Positions 2,529-12,034 of a DNA stretch of 64,000 nt are shown in pieces. Where the stretch lies: sequence record ON184125. The stretch is one strand, 5' to 3'. The DNA is from Escherichia phage PC3. How positions within the stretch are numbered: the first letter of the stretch is position 1; the number at the start of each line of letters is the position of its first letter. Both the position numbers and the translations under genes were made by a program. The notes below the pieces were generated by a model. It was given only the letters and a program-made list of their open reading frames with translations, did no database searches and was not told where the DNA came from.

Positions 2529-2693
2529 ATGAACTACGAACAAATTAAACTCGCAATCCTGGTCTTTGCATGCATCATTGACATCGTTTCGTTTTCTCGT
2601 GAAGTCGAAAGGAAAAACTACCTGAAAGCACTGGGGTATCTCGGGTTCTCTGTCTGGTTCTGTTATCTACTTGCAGGTCAGATCCTGAAATGA
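2529..2693 (+). CDS. small hydrophobic protein (54 aa), below ORF-track cutoff
   Basis: ATG 2 nt after gp46 stop; MNYEQIKLAILVFACIIDIVSF...FSVWFCYLLAGQILK; stop overlaps ATG of next gene (ATGA), suggesting translational coupling. Confidence 0.4.
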   Translation: MNYEQIKLAILVFACIIDIVSFSREVERKNYLKALGYLGFSVWFCYLLAGQILK

Positions 2694-3019
2694 AAGTCGT
2701 CCACTTCAAGAAGGAGCCATATGACGTCTACATTGGTCGGCCTGGTAAATGGGGGAACCCGTTTGAGGTCAAAGACCATGGACGAAGCGTCTGTATCGAA
2801 CTGTTTGAGGACGACCTGTATGTGCGCCTGATTGAAGGGGATATCACTGAGGATGAACTCCTTGATCTTGACGGGAAGGTATTGGGGTGCTGGTGTAAGC
2901 CGCGCCCCTGCCACGGAGATGTTTACGTCAAAGTCGTCGGGCGTATTAAACTATTCCGCAAGCTGGGTAAATCCTTTACTGAACATCTGAGACAAACGTA
3001 TGTCAGAAAACAAAGATGA
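2690..3019 (+). CDS. DUF4326-like protein with conserved Cys/His motif
   Basis: 109 aa; YIGRPGKWGNPF ... GCWCKPRPCHGD motif that I recognise as characteristic of the DUF4326 family; function unknown. Confidence 0.6.
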   Translation: MKVVHFKKEPYDVYIGRPGKWGNPFEVKDHGRSVCIELFEDDLYVRLIEGDITEDELLDLDGKVLGCWCKPRPCHGDVYVKVVGRIKLFRKLGKSFTEHLRQTYVRKQR

Positions 3020-3284
3020 AATTCAGGAATCCTGTGACATTGCTGTGGAGATATGGAATCGCAGGAATCCTCATTACCAAGTGACCGTCACTCCGAATCG
3101 TTATCTTGAGCAGGGTGGTCTGATTGTGGTTGATGCTGTACTCGCTTTCAACAAGTACCAAGATATGCAGATCCTGGACGGCAACTTTACCGTCGCGACC
3201 AAGACGGCATGGGATGACCCTCTACAGTTTGTCTATGGCTGGCTGGAGTGTATCGAGGAATCCTACCACCTCATCTACGAATGA
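3000..3284 (+). CDS. hypothetical protein
   Basis: 94 aa ORF overlapping end of previous gene by 20 nt; no recognisable motif. Confidence 0.5.
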   Translation: MSENKDEIQESCDIAVEIWNRRNPHYQVTVTPNRYLEQGGLIVVDAVLAFNKYQDMQILDGNFTVATKTAWDDPLQFVYGWLECIEESYHLIYE

Positions 3285-3381
3285 GGCTGAAGGGCACTAA
3301 ATATCACGTGCCCTTTATCTTTTAACCCCTGTCAGGAGGCTCAAGCGAGCTGCAAGTCGACAAAACATAAGGAACGCCATC

Positions 3382-3996
3382 ATGACGATGACAACGTTGA
3401 AGGCCATGGCCTTGTCCGTGACCTTTACCATTGCCAGCGGGAATGTGCACGCTTCCCAAAGTACCACCCAATGTGATTATAATTTCTCCGAGCAACAACT
3501 TAATACGATGGCAACCGCCTATCACGTAGGCAAGACACAAGATCTTGGCTACACTCTGGCCGCCATATCTTGGCGTGAGAGCCGCGCTGGCGAAGATGTA
3601 GTGTCAATGCGATACGGCCTCAAGGCGGCCAACATGGGAGCCTTTCAGAACAAGGTGAAGACAGTTGGTGATCGCGAAGGTTGTAAGAATCGCAAGTGCT
3701 ATGCCAATGTCGCTATAAAGTTGCTGACCGACCAAGAATATGCCGCGCAAGCCGCCCTCGATGAGATGCAGTTCTGGCTGACCTATCACAATCAGAATAT
3801 CCGCAAATCCCTCTCCTCTTACAATGCTGGCTTCGCCCGTAATCCTGCATCGAACGCTTATGCTGCCGACGTCGTGAAGAAAGCTAAATATCTTCAGAAA
3901 TGTGTGTCCTTCGAAGGCCGGACCATCTCCGAGGTAGATCCTCAGGTGATCGCCATGAACAAGCACACAATAGAGAAACTGAAGAGGACAAGATAA
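3382..3996 (+). CDS. secreted lytic transglycosylase-like protein (SLT-domain-like) with signal peptide
   Basis: 204 aa; N-terminal signal-peptide-like segment (MTMTTLKAMALSVTFTIASGNVHA); SWRESRAG (catalytic Glu-Ser-like), MGAFQ, SYNAG motifs reminiscent of lytic transglycosylases; preceded by hairpin and AGGAAC...ATCATG initiation region. Confidence 0.55.
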   Translation: MTMTTLKAMALSVTFTIASGNVHASQSTTQCDYNFSEQQLNTMATAYHVGKTQDLGYTLAAISWRESRAGEDVVSMRYGLKAANMGAFQNKVKTVGDREGCKNRKCYANVAIKLLTDQEYAAQAALDEMQFWLTYHNQNIRKSLSSYNAGFARNPASNAYAADVVKKAKYLQKCVSFEGRTISEVDPQVIAMNKHTIEKLKRTR

Positions 3997-4634
3997 TGAA
4001 CATCACTCCATCTCAGGCCGGATATGAACATATCTTGGTCTTCATTGCTCTACAGGGTGCGAAGGAAGGCATCATCGTATCCGAGTACTCAGGTACGGTT
4101 CGCCTTGCTGATTATGTCGCACCGGAGGCATTTATCAAGAAGTGTATTGACGCATGGTGCCTCTATGCCCTCAGCACATACCCTGCTCCTCCTGAGGGTG
4201 AGCTGTTGTTTACTGTGCCGACTCCGGCTGTTGGCGATACAGACGCGATCTTTGCCGATATGCTGACCAAGGGGTATCTGGTGTATGACATCACCCACGA
4301 TGTCTACTCCTTTACATCACTGAACACCGTGTTTGGATTCACCATCACATCTGAAGCCAACATCCCTGACTGGGGTATCTTGGCATGGGGCGTTGACGGT
4401 CTGGGTGCAACCTACGCATCGTCTGACGTCGGTGCGGTTCTGATTGATGAGGGTGTCACCATGGAGCAGTACCTTGCCCAGTTCCCTCAGCACAATATCA
4501 CAGGCAGCGACATCATTTTGGTCCAGCCTGGCGCTATCGCTCTCCCCCGTTTGGTAAATGGCTGGAAACCGCAGCTGAAGGATATCATCGCAGGTATTCG
4601 ATCCCACATTCCGGTTGTGAATCCGACGCCGTAA
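3996..4634 (+). CDS. hypothetical protein
   Basis: 212 aa from ATG overlapping previous stop (TAATG); track ORF 3900..4634 trimmed to internal Met 33. Confidence 0.55.
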   Translation: MNITPSQAGYEHILVFIALQGAKEGIIVSEYSGTVRLADYVAPEAFIKKCIDAWCLYALSTYPAPPEGELLFTVPTPAVGDTDAIFADMLTKGYLVYDITHDVYSFTSLNTVFGFTITSEANIPDWGILAWGVDGLGATYASSDVGAVLIDEGVTMEQYLAQFPQHNITGSDIILVQPGAIALPRLVNGWKPQLKDIIAGIRSHIPVVNPTP

Positions 4635-4646
4635 AAATAATTCAAT

Positions 4647-4670
4647 AAAAGGGGCAAACGCCCCTTTACT
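4647..4670 (+). terminator. rho-independent terminator
   Basis: AAAAGGGGC-aaac-GCCCCTTT hairpin followed by T-rich tract, directly after the stop at 4634. Confidence 0.7.
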
Positions 4671-5152: not shown

Positions 5153-7582
5153 ATGTCAAAGCTAAGTTTCCTCCAGTTCATGCAGGAAAGAGATCAGTTG
5201 GACGAAGCGTTCAACTCCGCTCCGTATGAGCTGACCATGGGTAAGAAGAACGCAGGCGATGTGTTCTTCACCTTCATCGACGAAGATGAAAAGGAATACC
5301 GTATTCAGTTCTATACCCCTCAGGGGCTGGGCAAGAGCGTTCGTCAGGTTTTCATCGGCCAGAAGCGCGGCTCCGTCTATCCTGACGCCATCGCTCGCTT
5401 CAAGAACCCAATGCGCGTTATCGCTTCCATGATCGAAGCGACCAAACAATTCATGGCGACTCCTCTGGGTAAGACCATCGATGGCTTTGCTGTCAACTTC
5501 TCTAAGAAAGCGCTGGATCGCGGTATGACCCTGATTCCTAAGATCATCCGCCAGTCCGGCCTGAAACAGAAGCTGAATGTCATGGACCTGACCTACGCGC
5601 CTGTCCCCGACCGTGGTTATGTGTGGTTGGTCCGCAAGGGTAAAGATCCGGCTCAGGTATTCGACGGTCCGAAGATGCAGGGCATCACCTGGGATGATCC
5701 AGACAAGGTCGGTGACGTTCCTGAGCAGCCAGTTGTACCAGCAGGTTCGGACAGAAATAACCCAGCCAACATTGTCGGTTCTGGAACTGCTGTTATTGAT
5801 GCCAAACGACTTGGTGCTCGGGAAGTAAACGTGGAACGATTCAAAAACGGTGTTCGCATGCGTTCTCAAAACGGTGACGTCGACATCAGTATTTCCGACC
5901 CAGACTTTTCAAATGCAGCAAGTGCGACTGATGCTGCCACAGCCTCTGTTGTGGTCAAGAACGGGCGTTACGAAGGTGCCATCAATTCAAAGCGCAAGAT
6001 TGCTCGCATCTCGAACGAGCAGGGTACTGAATGGGATATCATCGGTGTCAACGGGGAAACCCTTGTCTCTATCAAGTTGAACAAAGTGTCTAAATCCGCA
6101 TCGGATTCGACCGAGAGTACAACCAGTGTTGATCAATTACGTGACAGCGGTTTCATCGCTCGTGTTCTGGGTATCATTGATACCCACGTTGGGCTGGACA
6201 CTTCTATTCTTCCTGGTGAGAACATCCGTCGTGTGGGCGCTGGTCGTTACACGACGGCAGGCGGGTTGGTTATCGTTGTCAACTTCACAAACGTCCTCGC
6301 TGGTTTCGTTCAATACTCAGTTTTCAGCGAAATTGCTGAAGAGAAGAGCGTGGCCAAAGGTAGCGCCCGTGACGTCGCCAATGCGGTAATTGCGTCCATC
6401 TTTGAGGTTGCCAAGACCCAGTACACTGGCGAATGGGAAATCGGAGCAGTGCAAACAAGCGCTCCATACCCTATCAAGGCCATCCGTCATTCTCAGGGCT
6501 GGGGATATGTAGAAACCGCAAACTGGACTCTGAAAGTGTCCGACGCTGTCCTGAATCGTGTGAAGCCAGGGAACACTGCTCTGCTGGAACTCATCAAAGA
6601 GCCTCCGCGTGGCAAGCACCCGCTGGAAATCATCCCAGAGAAGGGCGACAAGACCCTGATGCTGAAAGATCGTATTACCGGGGCCATCTATGGTTCTATC
6701 GACCTGAATGCCCAAGGCGCTGATCTGGTCAACTCTGGAACCCTGAATATACCAAGCAACGCCATGGTGTTTGGTGAGACTGTCAACGGTATGTCCATCA
6801 CTTGGTCTGGCGTCAATTTCCCGAAAACTGGGAAGTATGATGGTGCTGTATTGACCACGAATGTGACCTATTACTACGACAAAGGCAAAGTGGCGATCAC
6901 GCCTATTGTATCCAATAAAGGTCGTACCCTGAACAATCCGAAGACATATGAACTTACTTTGAAGAAAGATATTGTTCAGGCCGTGATCGATGAAATTTCT
7001 TCTAAAATGGAAATGATATCTCGGAATATACAAACTCTGAAAAGCACGTCGTATAATCCGAAACAAGTATTTTTGGACGACATTTCTGTTGACAACAACG
7101 GTTCAGTCCTTTGGCGCGGGTACGACATGGCGGATCGCCGCACTAATGAATTTATGTTGGGTATCCTGTCCAAAGAAACCGAGAGACTGGAGAAAGAGTC
7201 GGGTACTGCGAAGAAGACTGGTGCCGACCTTGCGGCATACGCCGACTCCATCCGCGACAACGCACCAAAAGGCCGCGACCTGGATTGGCAGATCTATGCA
7301 AGCCGTGATGGTCAGACTCTGAACGTGGACTGGGATATCACCTTCCGCCGCAACACAACTGAAGGGGCATATCGCGAGTTCAAATCTCAGATTGACCGCG
7401 CCAACCAGTACCTGCAGACTCTGTACCGGGATGCGAAGTCCAAGGGTTACAACCCGACTGAACCAAACCTGATGACTCTGGATAGCGCCCAGCAGTCTGA
7501 CCAGTGGGCACGAGACTACGGGGAAGGCGCATACAGCGAGTACGAGCAGTCCCTGGGTGGCAACATGCAGATTAAGATCTGA
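5153..7582 (+). CDS. large hypothetical protein (809 aa)
   Basis: Long uninterrupted ORF with SD AGGAG 8 nt upstream of ATG; flanked by terminators on both sides; no family recognised. Confidence 0.8.
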   Translation: MSKLSFLQFMQERDQLDEAFNSAPYELTMGKKNAGDVFFTFIDEDEKEYRIQFYTPQGLGKSVRQVFIGQKRGSVYPDAIARFKNPMRVIASMIEATKQFMATPLGKTIDGFAVNFSKKALDRGMTLIPKIIRQSGLKQKLNVMDLTYAPVPDRGYVWLVRKGKDPAQVFDGPKMQGITWDDPDKVGDVPEQPVVPAGSDRNNPANIVGSGTAVIDAKRLGAREVNVERFKNGVRMRSQNGDVDISISDPDFSNAASATDAATASVVVKNGRYEGAINSKRKIARISNEQGTEWDIIGVNGETLVSIKLNKVSKSASDSTESTTSVDQLRDSGFIARVLGIIDTHVGLDTSILPGENIRRVGAGRYTTAGGLVIVVNFTNVLAGFVQYSVFSEIAEEKSVAKGSARDVANAVIASIFEVAKTQYTGEWEIGAVQTSAPYPIKAIRHSQGWGYVETANWTLKVSDAVLNRVKPGNTALLELIKEPPRGKHPLEIIPEKGDKTLMLKDRITGAIYGSIDLNAQGADLVNSGTLNIPSNAMVFGETVNGMSITWSGVNFPKTGKYDGAVLTTNVTYYYDKGKVAITPIVSNKGRTLNNPKTYELTLKKDIVQAVIDEISSKMEMISRNIQTLKSTSYNPKQVFLDDISVDNNGSVLWRGYDMADRRTNEFMLGILSKETERLEKESGTAKKTGADLAAYADSIRDNAPKGRDLDWQIYASRDGQTLNVDWDITFRRNTTEGAYREFKSQIDRANQYLQTLYRDAKSKGYNPTEPNLMTLDSAQQSDQWARDYGEGAYSEYEQSLGGNMQIKI

Positions 7583-7589
7583 TCATCGA

Positions 7590-7607
7590 AAGCCCCTTCG
7601 GGGGCTT
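7590..7607 (+). other. stable hairpin with UUCG tetraloop
   Basis: AAGCCCC-ttcg-GGGGCTT perfect 7 bp stem directly after stop of the 809 aa gene; 3' arm overlaps TATAAATA box. Confidence 0.6.
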
Positions 7608-7614
7608 ATAAATA
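7607..7614 (+). promoter_or_regulatory. T4-type late promoter box TATAAATA
   Basis: Exact TATAAATA 23 nt upstream of ATG 7638; consensus of T4 late (gp55-dependent) promoters from established knowledge. Confidence 0.5.
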
Positions 7615-7637: not shown

Positions 7638-7943
7638 ATGAAACCGTTTATCGAATATTTTAAAGAACAAGCCGCTAAACCTCAGACCCATGCTGGTGTC
7701 CAGGGTAAGACCGTATCCATCACCAAGCAAGCTGACGGCACTCAGTGGTGCTCCGGTGCTACCGTGACCCAGATCACCCCTGACAATCAGGCGGATGTCT
7801 ACAACCTGGAGTTAACCAACGGCAACACTATCAAGGTGAAACTGACCCCAGACCAGACTCACGGTATCTCCCAAGGTCAGGAAGTCGTTGCTGTCCATGA
7901 CGGTTTCGAATTCTTCTTTGGCAAGTCTGCCGACAAAGACTAA
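7638..7943 (+). CDS. hypothetical small protein, probably late-expressed
   Basis: 101 aa; SD GAGGAG upstream; TATAAATA box upstream. Confidence 0.65.
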   Translation: MKPFIEYFKEQAAKPQTHAGVQGKTVSITKQADGTQWCSGATVTQITPDNQADVYNLELTNGNTIKVKLTPDQTHGISQGQEVVAVHDGFEFFFGKSADKD

Positions 7944-7983
7944 GTGAAACCATCAAGATGACTCTGGTCAAACAGTGATTACA

Positions 7984-8014
7984 ATCCCCCTAAATACAGG
8001 GGGATTTCTTTTTC
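7984..8014 (+). terminator. rho-independent terminator
   Basis: ATCCCCC-taaataca-GGGGGAT hairpin followed by TTCTTTTT. Confidence 0.7.
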
Positions 8015-8028
8015 TGAGGAAACAAATC

Positions 8029-8382
8029 ATGGTTAACGCGAGTATTTTCATCAACCGTGGACTGCTTGCTATAGCCCACTCTCATGCCTTGCACTTCGTT
8101 ACAACGTCCTATGCCAAGCACAAGGCACTCGGGGAGTTCTACGGGGAACTGGAGGGCTTGCTGGACACGTTTACCGAAGCATACATCGGTGCTGGTGGTC
8201 AGTATGTTCCATCATTCGAGAATATCAAATTGTACAACCCAGACCCTATCTCCTATATTAACAGTGTGGTGATAGACGTCGATGGCATCTACAAGCAGTG
8301 TGACTCCCACCTTCAGAGCACTCTTGACGATATCAAGACACTGTGTTATCAGACGATCTACAAACTGAAGCAGCTGTCGTAA
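8029..8382 (+). CDS. hypothetical protein
   Basis: 117 aa from ATG with SD GAGGAAAC upstream (track ORF 7975 would include the terminator). Confidence 0.55.
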   Translation: MVNASIFINRGLLAIAHSHALHFVTTSYAKHKALGEFYGELEGLLDTFTEAYIGAGGQYVPSFENIKLYNPDPISYINSVVIDVDGIYKQCDSHLQSTLDDIKTLCYQTIYKLKQLS

Positions 8383-11202: not shown

Positions 11203-11239
11203 TTAAATACCTCTGCATTCATTGTGGAGGTATTTTCTT

Positions 11240-12034
11240 ATGGCCATTCTAAAACTTGGCAACCGTGGCACTGAAGTGAAGGCACTCCAGGATAGCCTCA
11301 ACAAAATCGGCTTCACCCTCGTCGCTGATGGTATCTTTGGCAAGGCAACAGAGAACGCCGTCAAGACTGTTCAGGCGGGTGCGGGGCTTGTCATTGATGG
11401 TATCGTGGGTCCAAAGACCTCCTATGCTATTCGCAACGCCGGAGACGCCCATCAGGATCATCTAACTGAGTCAGACCTGATTGATGCTGCTAACGATCTG
11501 GGTGTTGACCTTGCCTCTGTCAAGGCGGTGAATCAGGTTGAGTCGCGCGGCACGGGCTTCACCAAGTCAGGTAAGATCAAGACATTATTTGAGCGCCACA
11601 TCATGTATAAGAAGCTGATGGCGAAGTTCGGACAGGCTCGGGCGAATGCCATGGGGCATATGTACCCGACGTTGGTCAACCCTTCTGCAGGCGGGTACAC
11701 GGGCGGCGACGCGGAGTTGGATCGACTTCATGCGGCCATCAACATCGATGAGGATTGTGCGTACGAGAGCGCCTCTTACGGTCTCTTCCAGATCATGGGA
11801 TTCAACTGCCAGGTCTGTGGATATGCCAACGCCAAGGAGATGTTCAACGACTTCCTGACAGGAGAACGTGCTCATTTGATGGCATTCGTGAAGTTCATCA
11901 AGGCCGACGCCAAGCTCTGGCAGGCTCTGAAGGACAAGAACTGGTCTGAATTTGCGCGGCGCTATAATGGTCCAGCGTATGCCAAGAACCAGTACGACAA
12001 GAAGCTCGCAGCAGCATACAAGAGTTTCAGTTAA
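11240..12034 (+). CDS. endolysin: N-terminal peptidoglycan-binding domain + DUF3380-type N-acetylmuramidase
   Basis: 264 aa from ATG (track ORF starts at TTG 11222); LKLGNRGTEVKALQDSLNKIGF...DGIFGKAT PG_binding_1-like repeat; C-terminal ESASYGLFQIMGFN motif typical of DUF3380 muramidases. Confidence 0.8.
   Translation: MAILKLGNRGTEVKALQDSLNKIGFTLVADGIFGKATENAVKTVQAGAGLVIDGIVGPKTSYAIRNAGDAHQDHLTESDLIDAANDLGVDLASVKAVNQVESRGTGFTKSGKIKTLFERHIMYKKLMAKFGQARANAMGHMYPTLVNPSAGGYTGGDAELDRLHAAINIDEDCAYESASYGLFQIMGFNCQVCGYANAKEMFNDFLTGERAHLMAFVKFIKADAKLWQALKDKNWSEFARRYNGPAYAKNQYDKKLAAAYKSFS

Follow-up and report, generated by a model that had tools for sequence, protein, structure and literature searches.

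Escherichia phage PC3 (record ON184125), of which a 64,000-nucleotide stretch was analysed here (the window), carries two genes that point to enzymes acting on the bacterial cell wall: one for a canonical endolysin, and another whose product resembles a lytic transglycosylase and starts with a signal-peptide-like sequence. The question is what the second enzyme would do in a phage already equipped with an endolysin, and what the gene that begins on its stop codon has to say about the answer. The phage belongs to the Ackermannviridae (Agtrevirus) and is 100% identical in this region to Escherichia phage PH4. The locus comprises a gene for a predicted exported, Vs.1-type transglycosylase-like protein and a coupled virion-protein gene, a feature that is genuine but previously catalogued. 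There is nothing new in the sequence, which is identical to that of a deposited phage, and the SLT resemblance of the family was described in print no later than 2006.

The two-gene unit and its expression

Open reading frames 3382-3996 and 3996-4634, both on the plus strand, translate to proteins of 204 and 212 residues respectively, and form a two-gene unit with a hairpin on either side. The features of the locus, together with the endolysin gene, are as follows.

3288..3317, plus strand: 10-bp hairpin (UGAAGGGCAC/GUGCCCUUUA) followed by UCUUUU (fold -14.8 kcal/mol, z=-4.8)
3369..3373, plus strand: Shine-Dalgarno-like AAGGA, 8 nt before the ATG at 3382 (read from the sequence)
3382..3996, plus strand: gene for a putative lytic transglycosylase precursor, SLT/GH23-like and of the Vs.1 family, 204 aa (PHROG 600, Pfam SLT, T4 Vs.1 homology, AF2 fold)
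3382..3453, plus strand: predicted Sec signal peptide, residues 1-24, predicted cut after VHA (inspection, AF2 disorder, family N-termini)
3571..3591, plus strand: motif I, W-R-E66-S67-R-A-G, with the predicted catalytic glutamate codon at 3577-3579
3637..3648, plus strand: motif II, G86-A-F-Q89, GLMQ-like (conservation, EtgA alignment)
3817..3831, plus strand: motif III, S146-Y-N-A-G150, AYNAG-like (conservation, EtgA alignment)
3859-3861, plus strand: motif IV tyrosine, Y160 (conservation)
3994..3998, plus strand: TAATG stop/start overlap (read from the sequence)
3996..4634, plus strand: gene for a DUF7270 protein, 212 aa, no signal peptide (Pfam PF23934, PHROG 3923)
4648..4667, plus strand: 8-bp GC-rich hairpin (AAAGGGGC/GCCCCUUU) closing the two-gene unit (fold -13.6 kcal/mol, z=-4.9)
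11240..12034, plus strand: canonical endolysin, PG_binding_1 plus N-acetylmuramidase, no signal peptide (Pfam, PHROG 1224 endolysin)

Conservation of the gene pair extends to relatives with as little as 39%/34% identity. Two minus-strand open reading frames, 3604-3966 and 4317-4607, were rejected because they are nested inside these conserved plus-strand genes. The initial annotation had the second gene starting on the stop codon of the first, and this is borne out: A3996 lies within the TAA of 3382-3996, giving a 1-base overlap, with AGAGGA 8 nt upstream. An overlap of 1 or 4 nt is kept in LIMEstone1, Ag3, pSal-SNUABM-02, D5lw, Serratia phage Kevin and two metagenomic loci. The TAATG arrangement indicates that the two genes are translationally coupled.

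The 212-residue protein matches DUF7270 (Pfam PF23934) with 369.5 bits, positions 1-212 of the model falling on residues 1-212, and also belongs to PHROG 3923; a longer open reading frame from 3900 was rejected, since this alignment confirms the start at 3996. DUF7270 is restricted to Ackermannviridae-like phages: an exhaustive profile search of 1.84 billion proteins recovered no more than 8 representatives, all of them full-length, and nothing more distant, and a search of BFVD recovered only DUF7270 itself. The AF2 model of the protein (pLDDT 86) gave weak winged-helix-like fold matches only. Its homologue in LIMEstone1, ORF085, is listed from virion mass spectrometry as a 'confirmed structural protein' of 22.75 kDa, with 4 peptides (PMC3296691), and by homology to ORF085 the DUF7270 protein is a predicted lineage-specific virion protein. 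That the coupled gene is a DUF7270 gene with a counterpart in LIMEstone1 virions, and that the first gene belongs to a known family, that of T4 Vs.1, are points additional to those made in the initial annotation.

The hairpin at 3288..3317 has the appearance of a terminator for the gp46-NrdA.1 gene block that lies upstream. Within the hairpin loop is CTAAATA (3297-3303), which may serve the gene pair as a T4-type late promoter. The same arrangement of hairpin and TAAATA is found at 7983-8006, upstream of the homologue of LIMEstone1 ORF078 (a virion gene), where the depositors annotated a late promoter; and TTAAATA occurs at 11203, before the endolysin gene. The late-promoter 7-mer is not enriched in the window, with 14 occurrences found against about 23 expected, as estimated for uniform base composition. 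A scan for sigma-70 promoters upstream of 3382 gave nothing convincing, and the exact sequence TATAAATA occurs only twice in the window, neither time at this locus. At the other end of the unit, the site equivalent to the hairpin at 4648..4667 is annotated in LIMEstone1 as a factor-independent terminator. Since the DUF7270 start overlaps the stop of the first gene, one mRNA would serve both, probably transcribed from the late CTAAATA promoter, and late co-expression of 3382-3996 with the virion-protein gene is mildly favoured. In T4, vs.1 shares its strand with regB, vs and tk, all running in the pre-replicative direction, so the timing of expression may not be conserved across the Vs.1 family.

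Family, predicted fold and export of the 204-residue protein

Homology of the 204-residue protein to the T4 Vs.1 family is full-length: it matches PHROG 600, which is that family, with E=1.3e-59 over residues 7-179, and in pairwise comparison shares 30% identity with T4 Vs.1 itself (E=1e-18). Relatives were found by tblastn in 2,127 phage records, T4 vs.1 among them, and a genome scan with alignment A1 revealed a single Vs.1-family locus, apparently phage-derived, in a Flagellimonas assembly. A tblastn search of a plasmid collection gave no match, which argues against a close tie to the transglycosylases of conjugation systems. No NCBIfam model matches the 204-residue protein, the DUF7270 protein or T4 Vs.1. 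The SLT resemblance of T4 Vs.1 had already been published by 2006 (Nolan 2006, PMC1524935); literature searches for a phenotype or activity of Vs.1, and on DUF7270, Ackermannviridae transcriptomes and transglycosylases, returned no such report and nothing beyond that paper and the LIMEstone1 proteome.

The SLT-type resemblance had initially been read from three segments, SWRESRAG, MGAFQ and SYNAG, and both the segments and the resemblance stand. ISWRESRAG occupies residues 62-70, MGAFQ residues 85-89 and SYNAG residues 146-150, and the protein carries all four family-1 lytic-transglycosylase motifs (E66-S67, G86-A-F-Q89, S146-Y-N-A-G150 and Y160). E66 shows no variation in alignment A3 and lines up with the ES of EtgA. 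G86 does not vary in A1 and hardly does in A3, and its counterpart in EtgA is GIMQ. S146, Y147, N148, G150 and Y160 vary little or not at all, and line up with AYNAGY of EtgA. Pfam SLT (PF01464) is the sole Pfam match, its 20.4 bits (E=3.9e-4) falling slightly short of the gathering score, 21.3; it is the sole or top match in 22/22 close relatives and is matched by 15 of 17 diverse Vs.1-family members, at best with E=3.3e-12. A search of PDB sequences with the single sequence gave no match, and significance was reached only by the broader family profile A3, which found EtgA (8urn) with E=1.9e-5, the ES, G-x-x-Q and YNAG motifs being aligned, followed by MltD and goose-type lysozymes.

Structure prediction, which had been put forward as a check on muralytic function, gave an AF2 model with pLDDT 87 and pTM 0.81, in which residues 1-27 lie below pLDDT 50 and the remainder is folded at about 90 or higher. 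The best PDB neighbours returned by Foldseek were the GH23 chitinase 3w6e, MltD, Slt, MltE and Slt70, with fungal muramidases also present, at a probability of about 1.0 but with weak E-values (0.02 or higher) and TM scores of 0.45 by query and 0.56-0.61 by target. Nearly all of the top neighbours are GH23 or lysozyme-like proteins, and the predicted fold is of the lysozyme-like alpha-helical kind (GH23).

In such an enzyme Glu66 would be the single acid/base catalyst, cleaving the MurNAc-GlcNAc bond of peptidoglycan, and the chemistry would most likely be that of a lytic transglycosylase, producing 1,6-anhydroMurNAc ends. The same fold in the same location could instead support a different chemistry, that of a hydrolytic muramidase resembling goose-type lysozymes or of a glycosidase acting on another GlcNAc polymer. 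GH23 also holds hydrolytic goose-type lysozymes and a chitinase, and proteins of these kinds appear in the present comparisons: goose-type lysozymes turn up in the profile search, and the GH23 chitinase and fungal muramidases are among the top Foldseek matches. The motif set E-S, G-x-x-Q, [AS]-Y-N-x-G nevertheless belongs to family-1 lytic transglycosylases, and among solved structures only the transglycosylase EtgA is matched significantly by sequence. We consider such a different chemistry unlikely.

The initial annotation's signal-peptide-like start holds up on inspection. The N-terminus reads MTMTTLKAMALSVTFTIASGNVHA with the predicted cut before SQ, and divides into an n-region MTMTTLK (K7), an h-region AMALSVTFTIA and a c-region SGNVHA (V at -3, A at -1), followed by SQSTTQC; the -3,-1 rule is obeyed by V22-H-A24 ahead of S25. 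Hydrophobicity of the h-region is only moderate (mean Kyte-Doolittle 1.86 over 10 residues, rank 11 among the 85 window ORFs). On a heuristic reading, signal-peptide-like N-termini with a basic n-region, a hydrophobic core and a small-x-small site recur in 8/8 diverse Vs.1-family members, and it is mainly on this family-wide conservation that the call rests, since the hydrophobicity of the h-region is marginal and the call was made by inspection. A lipoprotein reading was rejected, there being no lipobox. A cysteine pair, one near the mature N-terminus and one near the C-terminus (C31/C174 here), recurs in the family and suggests a pairing of the sort expected for a periplasmic disulfide. The 204-residue protein is very probably an exported GH23-fold enzyme of the Vs.1 family.

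The N-terminus might alternatively stay uncleaved, as in a SAR-type second endolysin, tethering an inactive enzyme in the inner membrane until holin-induced depolarisation released it. A, S, T and G account for eight of the 13 h-region residues (AMALSVTFTIASG) and the stretch is only modestly hydrophobic, a composition that recalls SAR domains. However, the hydrophobic stretch of 11-13 residues is to be compared with about 16 or more in SAR endolysins, a canonical cleavage motif (V-H-A before S) follows it, and the signal peptides of distant relatives are of the classical kind, strongly hydrophobic and with A-x-A-like sites. T4 RI, long believed to be a SAR protein, is itself reported to have a cleavable signal peptide (PMC8385771). 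A tethered second endolysin appears quite improbable.

Possible roles during infection

The product of 3382-3996 is probably best regarded as an accessory enzyme that is exported by Sec, remodels peptidoglycan and is produced late, together with a virion protein. Residues 1-24 would direct it across the inner membrane, and the mature product, of about 180 residues, would be a soluble periplasmic enzyme of the lysozyme-like (GH23/SLT) type, while the DUF7270 protein would remain cytoplasmic and, by homology, be incorporated into virions. Because the two products are expected in different compartments, their coupling probably serves co-expression rather than formation of a complex. The separate canonical endolysin reported at 11240-12034 is indeed encoded there, with matches to Pfam PF11860 Muramidase (E=5.6e-59) and PF01471 (PG_binding_1; E=1.4e-14). 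The 204-residue enzyme cannot be the timed endolysin, since it would reach the wall without a holin; the timed endolysin is this muramidase. T4 endolysin (e) mutants fail to lyse, so that the T4 homologue Vs.1 cannot replace gene e and is not sufficient for lysis. Acting from the periplasm in the course of infection, a non-lethal accessory enzyme might trim or loosen the sacculus and thereby make lysis efficient, and wall conditioning of this kind is suggested tentatively as the biological role.

A wider proposal, which is more doubtful, is that large virulent phages infecting Gram-negative bacteria have in common a step, carried out by Vs.1-type enzymes, that needs no holin (about 2,100 genomes, T4 included). 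They would be phage-made 'specialised' periplasmic lytic transglycosylases, analogous to EtgA or VirB1, and would breach or thin the sacculus ahead of lysis, perhaps to make room for a trans-envelope assembly of the phage or to govern how fast and how completely cells lyse when the endolysin alone is limiting; in the Ackermannviridae their dosage would be tied to that of a virion protein by translational coupling.

A role in periplasmic protection or exclusion would have the protein alter the wall, or bind a wall enzyme, so that superinfecting phages or lysis from without would be blocked, catalysis being of secondary importance. It would then be periplasmic like T4 Spackle, an inhibitor of gp5 lysozyme (PMC7677548), and T4 vs.1 sits among early-type genes; but the strictly conserved catalytic residues argue for an active enzyme and no inhibitor-like fold was found, so that such a role has a low probability.

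Entry, among the roles that the initial annotation had entertained, is disfavoured. The enzyme would in that case be carried in the virion with the DUF7270 protein and digest the wall during DNA injection, which would fit the translational coupling to a gene whose homologue was found in virions and the position of the gene next to a cluster of virion genes. Virion-borne SLT domains do exist in other phages, in T7 gp16 and PRD1 P7. The family-wide export signal, on the other hand, is at odds with assembly in the cytoplasm, and Vs.1 homologues occur in T4-like, Felix O1-like and other phages that have no DUF7270 partner. The LIMEstone1 homologue, ORF086, is moreover absent from the 39 proteins identified by virion mass spectrometry, among which there is a gp5-type tail lysozyme (PMC3296691), these presence and absence data being taken from the literature for homologues in a different phage. 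Overall, an entry function is very unlikely.

Finally, the proposal that the protein is the site-specific endoribonuclease RegB, as many GenBank names have it ('putative RegB protein' or 'endoribonuclease' in LIMEstone1, JA15, Maynard, selz and others), is refuted by pairwise comparison with T4 RegB, to which it has no similarity (best E=0.25 over 21 residues). The name has plausibly spread because regB adjoins vs.1 in T4. Some relatives are annotated "lytic transglycosylase", but many are named RegB, and the large share of Ackermannviridae records that wrongly say "RegB" or "endoribonuclease" should read Vs.1-like or SLT-domain protein. The Vs.1 family is a conserved, predicted-exported wall enzyme, present even in T4, for which no assigned role was found in the literature, and it bears on whether phages remodel the wall before holin triggering.

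Comparison with known systems

T4 Vs.1 is, like the 204-residue protein, a single-domain protein with its own signal peptide (MRKALLAGLLAISMMAHS before SE) and the motifs WQES, GMFQ and SYNSG, but it has no cysteines and lacks the C-terminal basic helical tail that here forms residues 175-204. The genetic settings also differ, T4 vs.1 lying between regB and vs without a DUF7270 neighbour, whereas the gene described here shares its unit with a virion gene and a motif resembling a late promoter.

Of the solved structures, EtgA gives the best profile match, its ES, G-x-M/F-Q and YNAG motifs aligning with those of the Vs.1 family, and it is a small, Sec-exported, single-domain enzyme, as is predicted for the 204-residue protein. 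Identity between the two is low, and the phage protein has about 25 inserted residues between motifs II and III, including a C101-x4-C106 loop. EtgA opens the wall locally with a type III secretion rod protein, whereas no partner machine is known for the 204-residue protein. The host enzymes Slt70, Slt, MltD and MltE of E. coli and Pseudomonas share its predicted lysozyme-like fold, its motifs and its predicted periplasmic location, but they are larger or lipid-anchored, with accessory domains, and the similarity is detectable at the fold or profile level only (Foldseek E 0.02 or higher).

Among phage enzymes, the signal-peptide and SAR endolysins P1 Lyz, R21 of phage 21 and Lys44 of fOg44 reach the wall via Sec and not through a holin hole. 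Each of these is the sole endolysin of its phage, whereas here the enzyme is accompanied by a separate canonical endolysin at 11240-12034.

Fold and export of the Vs.1-like protein

The ORF at 3382-3996 (+) encodes a 204-residue Vs.1-family protein, a putative lytic transglycosylase, whose translation holds ISWRESRAG, MGAFQ and SYNAG exactly as the initial annotation had described. Its sole Pfam match is SLT (E=3.9e-4), at 20.4 bits slightly under the gathering score of 21.3, and among the PHROGs it matches phrog_600, labelled 'unknown function' (E=1.3e-59). SLT is nevertheless the top Pfam match in all 22 close relatives of the protein, and is matched by 15 of 17 diverse family members (best E=3.3e-12). 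Searched with a profile of the close relatives, the solved structure of EtgA scored just E=0.1; a broader family profile brought this to E=1.9e-5. In the latter alignment the motifs E-S, G-x-[MF]-Q and [AS]-Y-N-A-G fall in matching columns, and the next matches are MltD and goose-type lysozymes. Structure prediction from an alignment likewise returned a lysozyme-like fold with GH23 neighbours. The AlphaFold2 model (mean pLDDT 87, pTM 0.81; residues 1-27 below 50) is all-helical with a small beta element. Foldseek ranks a GH23 chitinase, MltD, Slt, MltE and Slt70 as the PDB structures closest to it, with probability about 1 but weak E-values (at least 0.02) and TM-scores of 0.45-0.61. The predicted catalytic glutamate E66, together with G86, S146, Y147, N148, G150 and Y160, is invariant or almost so in the family. 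From these comparisons and the model we conclude that the protein, though divergent, truly belongs to the lysozyme-like GH23/SLT superfamily and retains its predicted catalytic glutamate.

The signal-peptide-like start noted earlier was also recovered: a basic n-region (MTMTTLK), a hydrophobic core of 11 residues (AMALSVTFTIA) and SGNVHA, ending in a V-x-A site, precede the predicted cut and SQSTTQC. A caveat is the modest hydrophobicity of the h-region, whose Kyte-Doolittle mean of 1.86 across 10 residues ranks 11th among the 85 ORFs in the window. Full-length homologues were extracted from T4 and from phages PhT2 (Acinetobacter), Aswh_1 (Aeromonas), allfine (Felix O1-like), KASIA (Shewanella), and PVA8 and SD25 (Vibrio); in all of them an M-K/R start leads into ten strongly hydrophobic residues (Kyte-Doolittle 2.1-3.0) and then a small-x-small site. 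No lipobox was found. A cysteine shortly after the predicted cut and another near the C-terminus occur in five of eight family members (C31/C174 in the window protein), and Ackermannviridae copies have an extra C-x4-C loop (C101/C106). Such conserved pairs would be expected of a protein folding in the oxidising periplasm. Because the homologues share signal-peptide-like N-termini and cysteine pairs recur among them, predicted export is well supported by comparison, and the combination of export and a GH23 fold is very probable.

Relatives were found by tblastn in 2,127 of 50,697 phage records. About 270 are from Ackermannviridae and share at least 60% identity; the remainder, below 60% (26-41% among the matches listed), come from Straboviridae including T4, Felix O1-like phages, Vibrio, Aeromonas and Acinetobacter phages and a Shewanella siphovirus. 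The T4 match is vs.1, which adjoins regB (E=1e-18, 30% identity in pairwise comparison). For vs.1, a marginal yet consistent SLT match in six T4-like genomes was reported by Nolan et al. 2006 (PMC1524935), who also cite prior PSI-BLAST evidence. The sequence is in GenBank, the family is known, its SLT resemblance is published, and some copies even carry 'lytic transglycosylase' as their annotation; a literature search found no paper addressing the biology of the Vs.1-type enzyme. The only bacterial-genome match to the family pattern, in Flagellimonas marina (NZ_JBHSCL010000010.1; 3701-4369 of the extracted locus), encodes a 222-residue Vs.1-like protein with a signal peptide; it lies beside a PIN/PhoH-like gene and, by sequence appearance, a macro-domain gene, and the region is probably phage-derived.

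Residues 175-204 (window 3904-3993) form a basic, helical, confidently modelled tail (…NKHTIEKLKRTR) carried by Ackermannviridae copies. A comparable tail (…VNHEKIKKV) is found in the Felix O1-like copy; T4 Vs.1 and the majority of other relatives have none. The tail may serve in interaction or wall binding.

Gene order and signals around the pair

By megablast, region 2500-5200 matches Escherichia phage PH4 (ON184126) end to end at 100% identity and is 97-98.6% identical to other Agtrevirus phages; the 271 matching records are Ackermannviridae nearly throughout. The local order is:

181-2526, gp46-like SbcC gene
between 181-2526 and 2690-3019, small membrane protein gene
2690-3019, NrdA.1/DUF4326 gene
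3000-3284, hypothetical gene directly before the pair
3288-3317, hairpin of 10 bp, -14.8 kcal/mol, z=-4.8, with a U-rich tail
3382-3996 (+), Vs.1-like gene
3996-4634 (+), DUF7270 gene (212 residues)
4648-4667, hairpin with an 8-bp GC stem, -13.6 kcal/mol, z=-4.9, at the position of an annotated LIMEstone1 terminator
downstream, one more hypothetical gene followed by a virion gene block
11240-12034, the separate canonical endolysin already recognised, a PG_binding_1 plus N-acetylmuramidase protein

The second gene does start on the stop codon of the first, the last A of TAA (3994-3996) being the first base of its ATG, with AGAGGA 8 nt upstream. This order, with a 1-nt (TAATG) or 4-nt (ATGA) overlap, is kept in Agtrevirus Ag3 and pSal-SNUABM-02, Limestonevirus LIMEstone1 and JA15, Kuttervirus D5lw and Miltonvirus Kevin. 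Two metagenomic contigs keep order and overlap although the first and second protein are only 39% and 34% identical to their window counterparts. DUF7270 is missing beside the Vs.1-like gene in one Vibrio phage of the Ackermannviridae and in every relative outside that family, and the enzyme is therefore independent of this partner.

The loop of the upstream hairpin contains CTAAATA, a candidate late promoter for the pair. The same design, with TAAATA, recurs at 7983-8006 ahead of the homologue of virion gene ORF078, a position to which the LIMEstone1 authors assigned a late promoter. Ahead of another virion gene lies ATAAATA (7608), and ahead of the endolysin TTAAATA (11203). The 7-mer type has no overall enrichment in the window, so only position supports the promoter call. 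The hairpins at 3288-3317, 7983-8006 and about 7590-7614 are all intergenic and U-tailed, with a T4-late-promoter-like [CA]TAAATA inside the loop or immediately behind it, and look like modules that unite a terminator with a late promoter.

Genes for lysis or its control lie near the Vs.1-like gene in several unrelated phages: rIIA/rIIB and an i-spanin in allfine, an o-spanin in KASIA and rI in PhT2. This suggests a link to lysis, inconsistent across the family.

DUF7270 and neighbouring virion genes

The second protein matches Pfam DUF7270 end to end (369.5 bits) and also PHROG 3923; no signal peptide was found in it. Relatives occur in 282 phage records, with hosts nearly all typical of Ackermannviridae (tblastn), and an exhaustive HMMER profile search returned only eight representatives among 1.84 billion representative proteins, which confines DUF7270 to this lineage. 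ESI-MS/MS of purified virions detected its LIMEstone1 homologue ORF085 (22.75 kDa; 4 unique peptides, 17% coverage), and according to the authors each of the twelve unknown structural proteins is matched by a virion protein of phage ViI (PMC3296691). A literature search found no paper on the function of this virion protein.

The 5153-7582 product (809 residues, PHROG 3867, no Pfam match) looks like a length-variable virion protein. Relatives have proteins of widely differing length at this site, for example 531 residues in JA15 and 573 in Ag3, and LIMEstone1 has two ORFs (081, 082) whose products MS confirmed in virions. The 7638-7943 ORF (101 residues) matches only the first 100 of 189 positions of PHROG 4048, and its positional equivalent in LIMEstone1, ORF080 (189 residues), has been confirmed in virions. 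In the window this gene seems to be truncated, or to have lost its C-terminal half along with the small gene that follows. The DUF5856 protein at 8029-8382 (117 residues) belongs to PHROG 858, 'starvation-inducible transcriptional regulator', an odd annotation for a counterpart of LIMEstone1 ORF078, which was found in virions by mass spectrometry.

Proposed role and alternatives

The Vs.1-like protein is proposed to be a periplasmic accessory enzyme that would trim or loosen peptidoglycan during infection and, in this lineage, would be made late, jointly with a virion protein. One rival is a SAR-type second endolysin. A Sec route to the wall would rule the enzyme out as the timed lysis effector, a task that would fall to the signal-less muramidase at 11240-12034; that it aids lysis efficiency is a guess, and a rather doubtful one. 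Another rival is hydrolase chemistry, as in the goose-type lysozymes, over which the motif set would favour the anhydro ends of a transglycosylase. A periplasmic exclusion factor is a further rival. The entry role raised in the initial annotation, as a virion enzyme, is disfavoured: the transglycosylase-like ORF086 is absent from the 39-protein LIMEstone1 virion list, in which a gp5-type tail lysozyme is present (PMC3296691).

Copies of the gene are labelled 'Vs.1 conserved hypothetical protein' in Shigella phage Ag3, 'lytic transglycosylase' in Klebsiella phage Menlow and 'membrane-bound lytic murein transglycosylase F' in pSal-SNUABM-02. 'RegB' or 'site-specific RNA endonuclease' is a widespread mis-annotation in Ackermannviridae records (HE600015 ORF086 of LIMEstone1, KY942056, Salmonella phage Maynard), probably spread from the adjoining T4 gene regB. 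Identity with RegB is refuted, there being no similarity to the T4 protein (E=0.25).

T4 e mutants fail to lyse though vs.1 is present, and Vs.1-type activity is therefore not lethal alone. The accessory-enzyme proposal draws on this, on the predicted Sec route and on likeness to the closest characterised proteins, the small exported 'specialised' transglycosylases, which make limited, local cuts.
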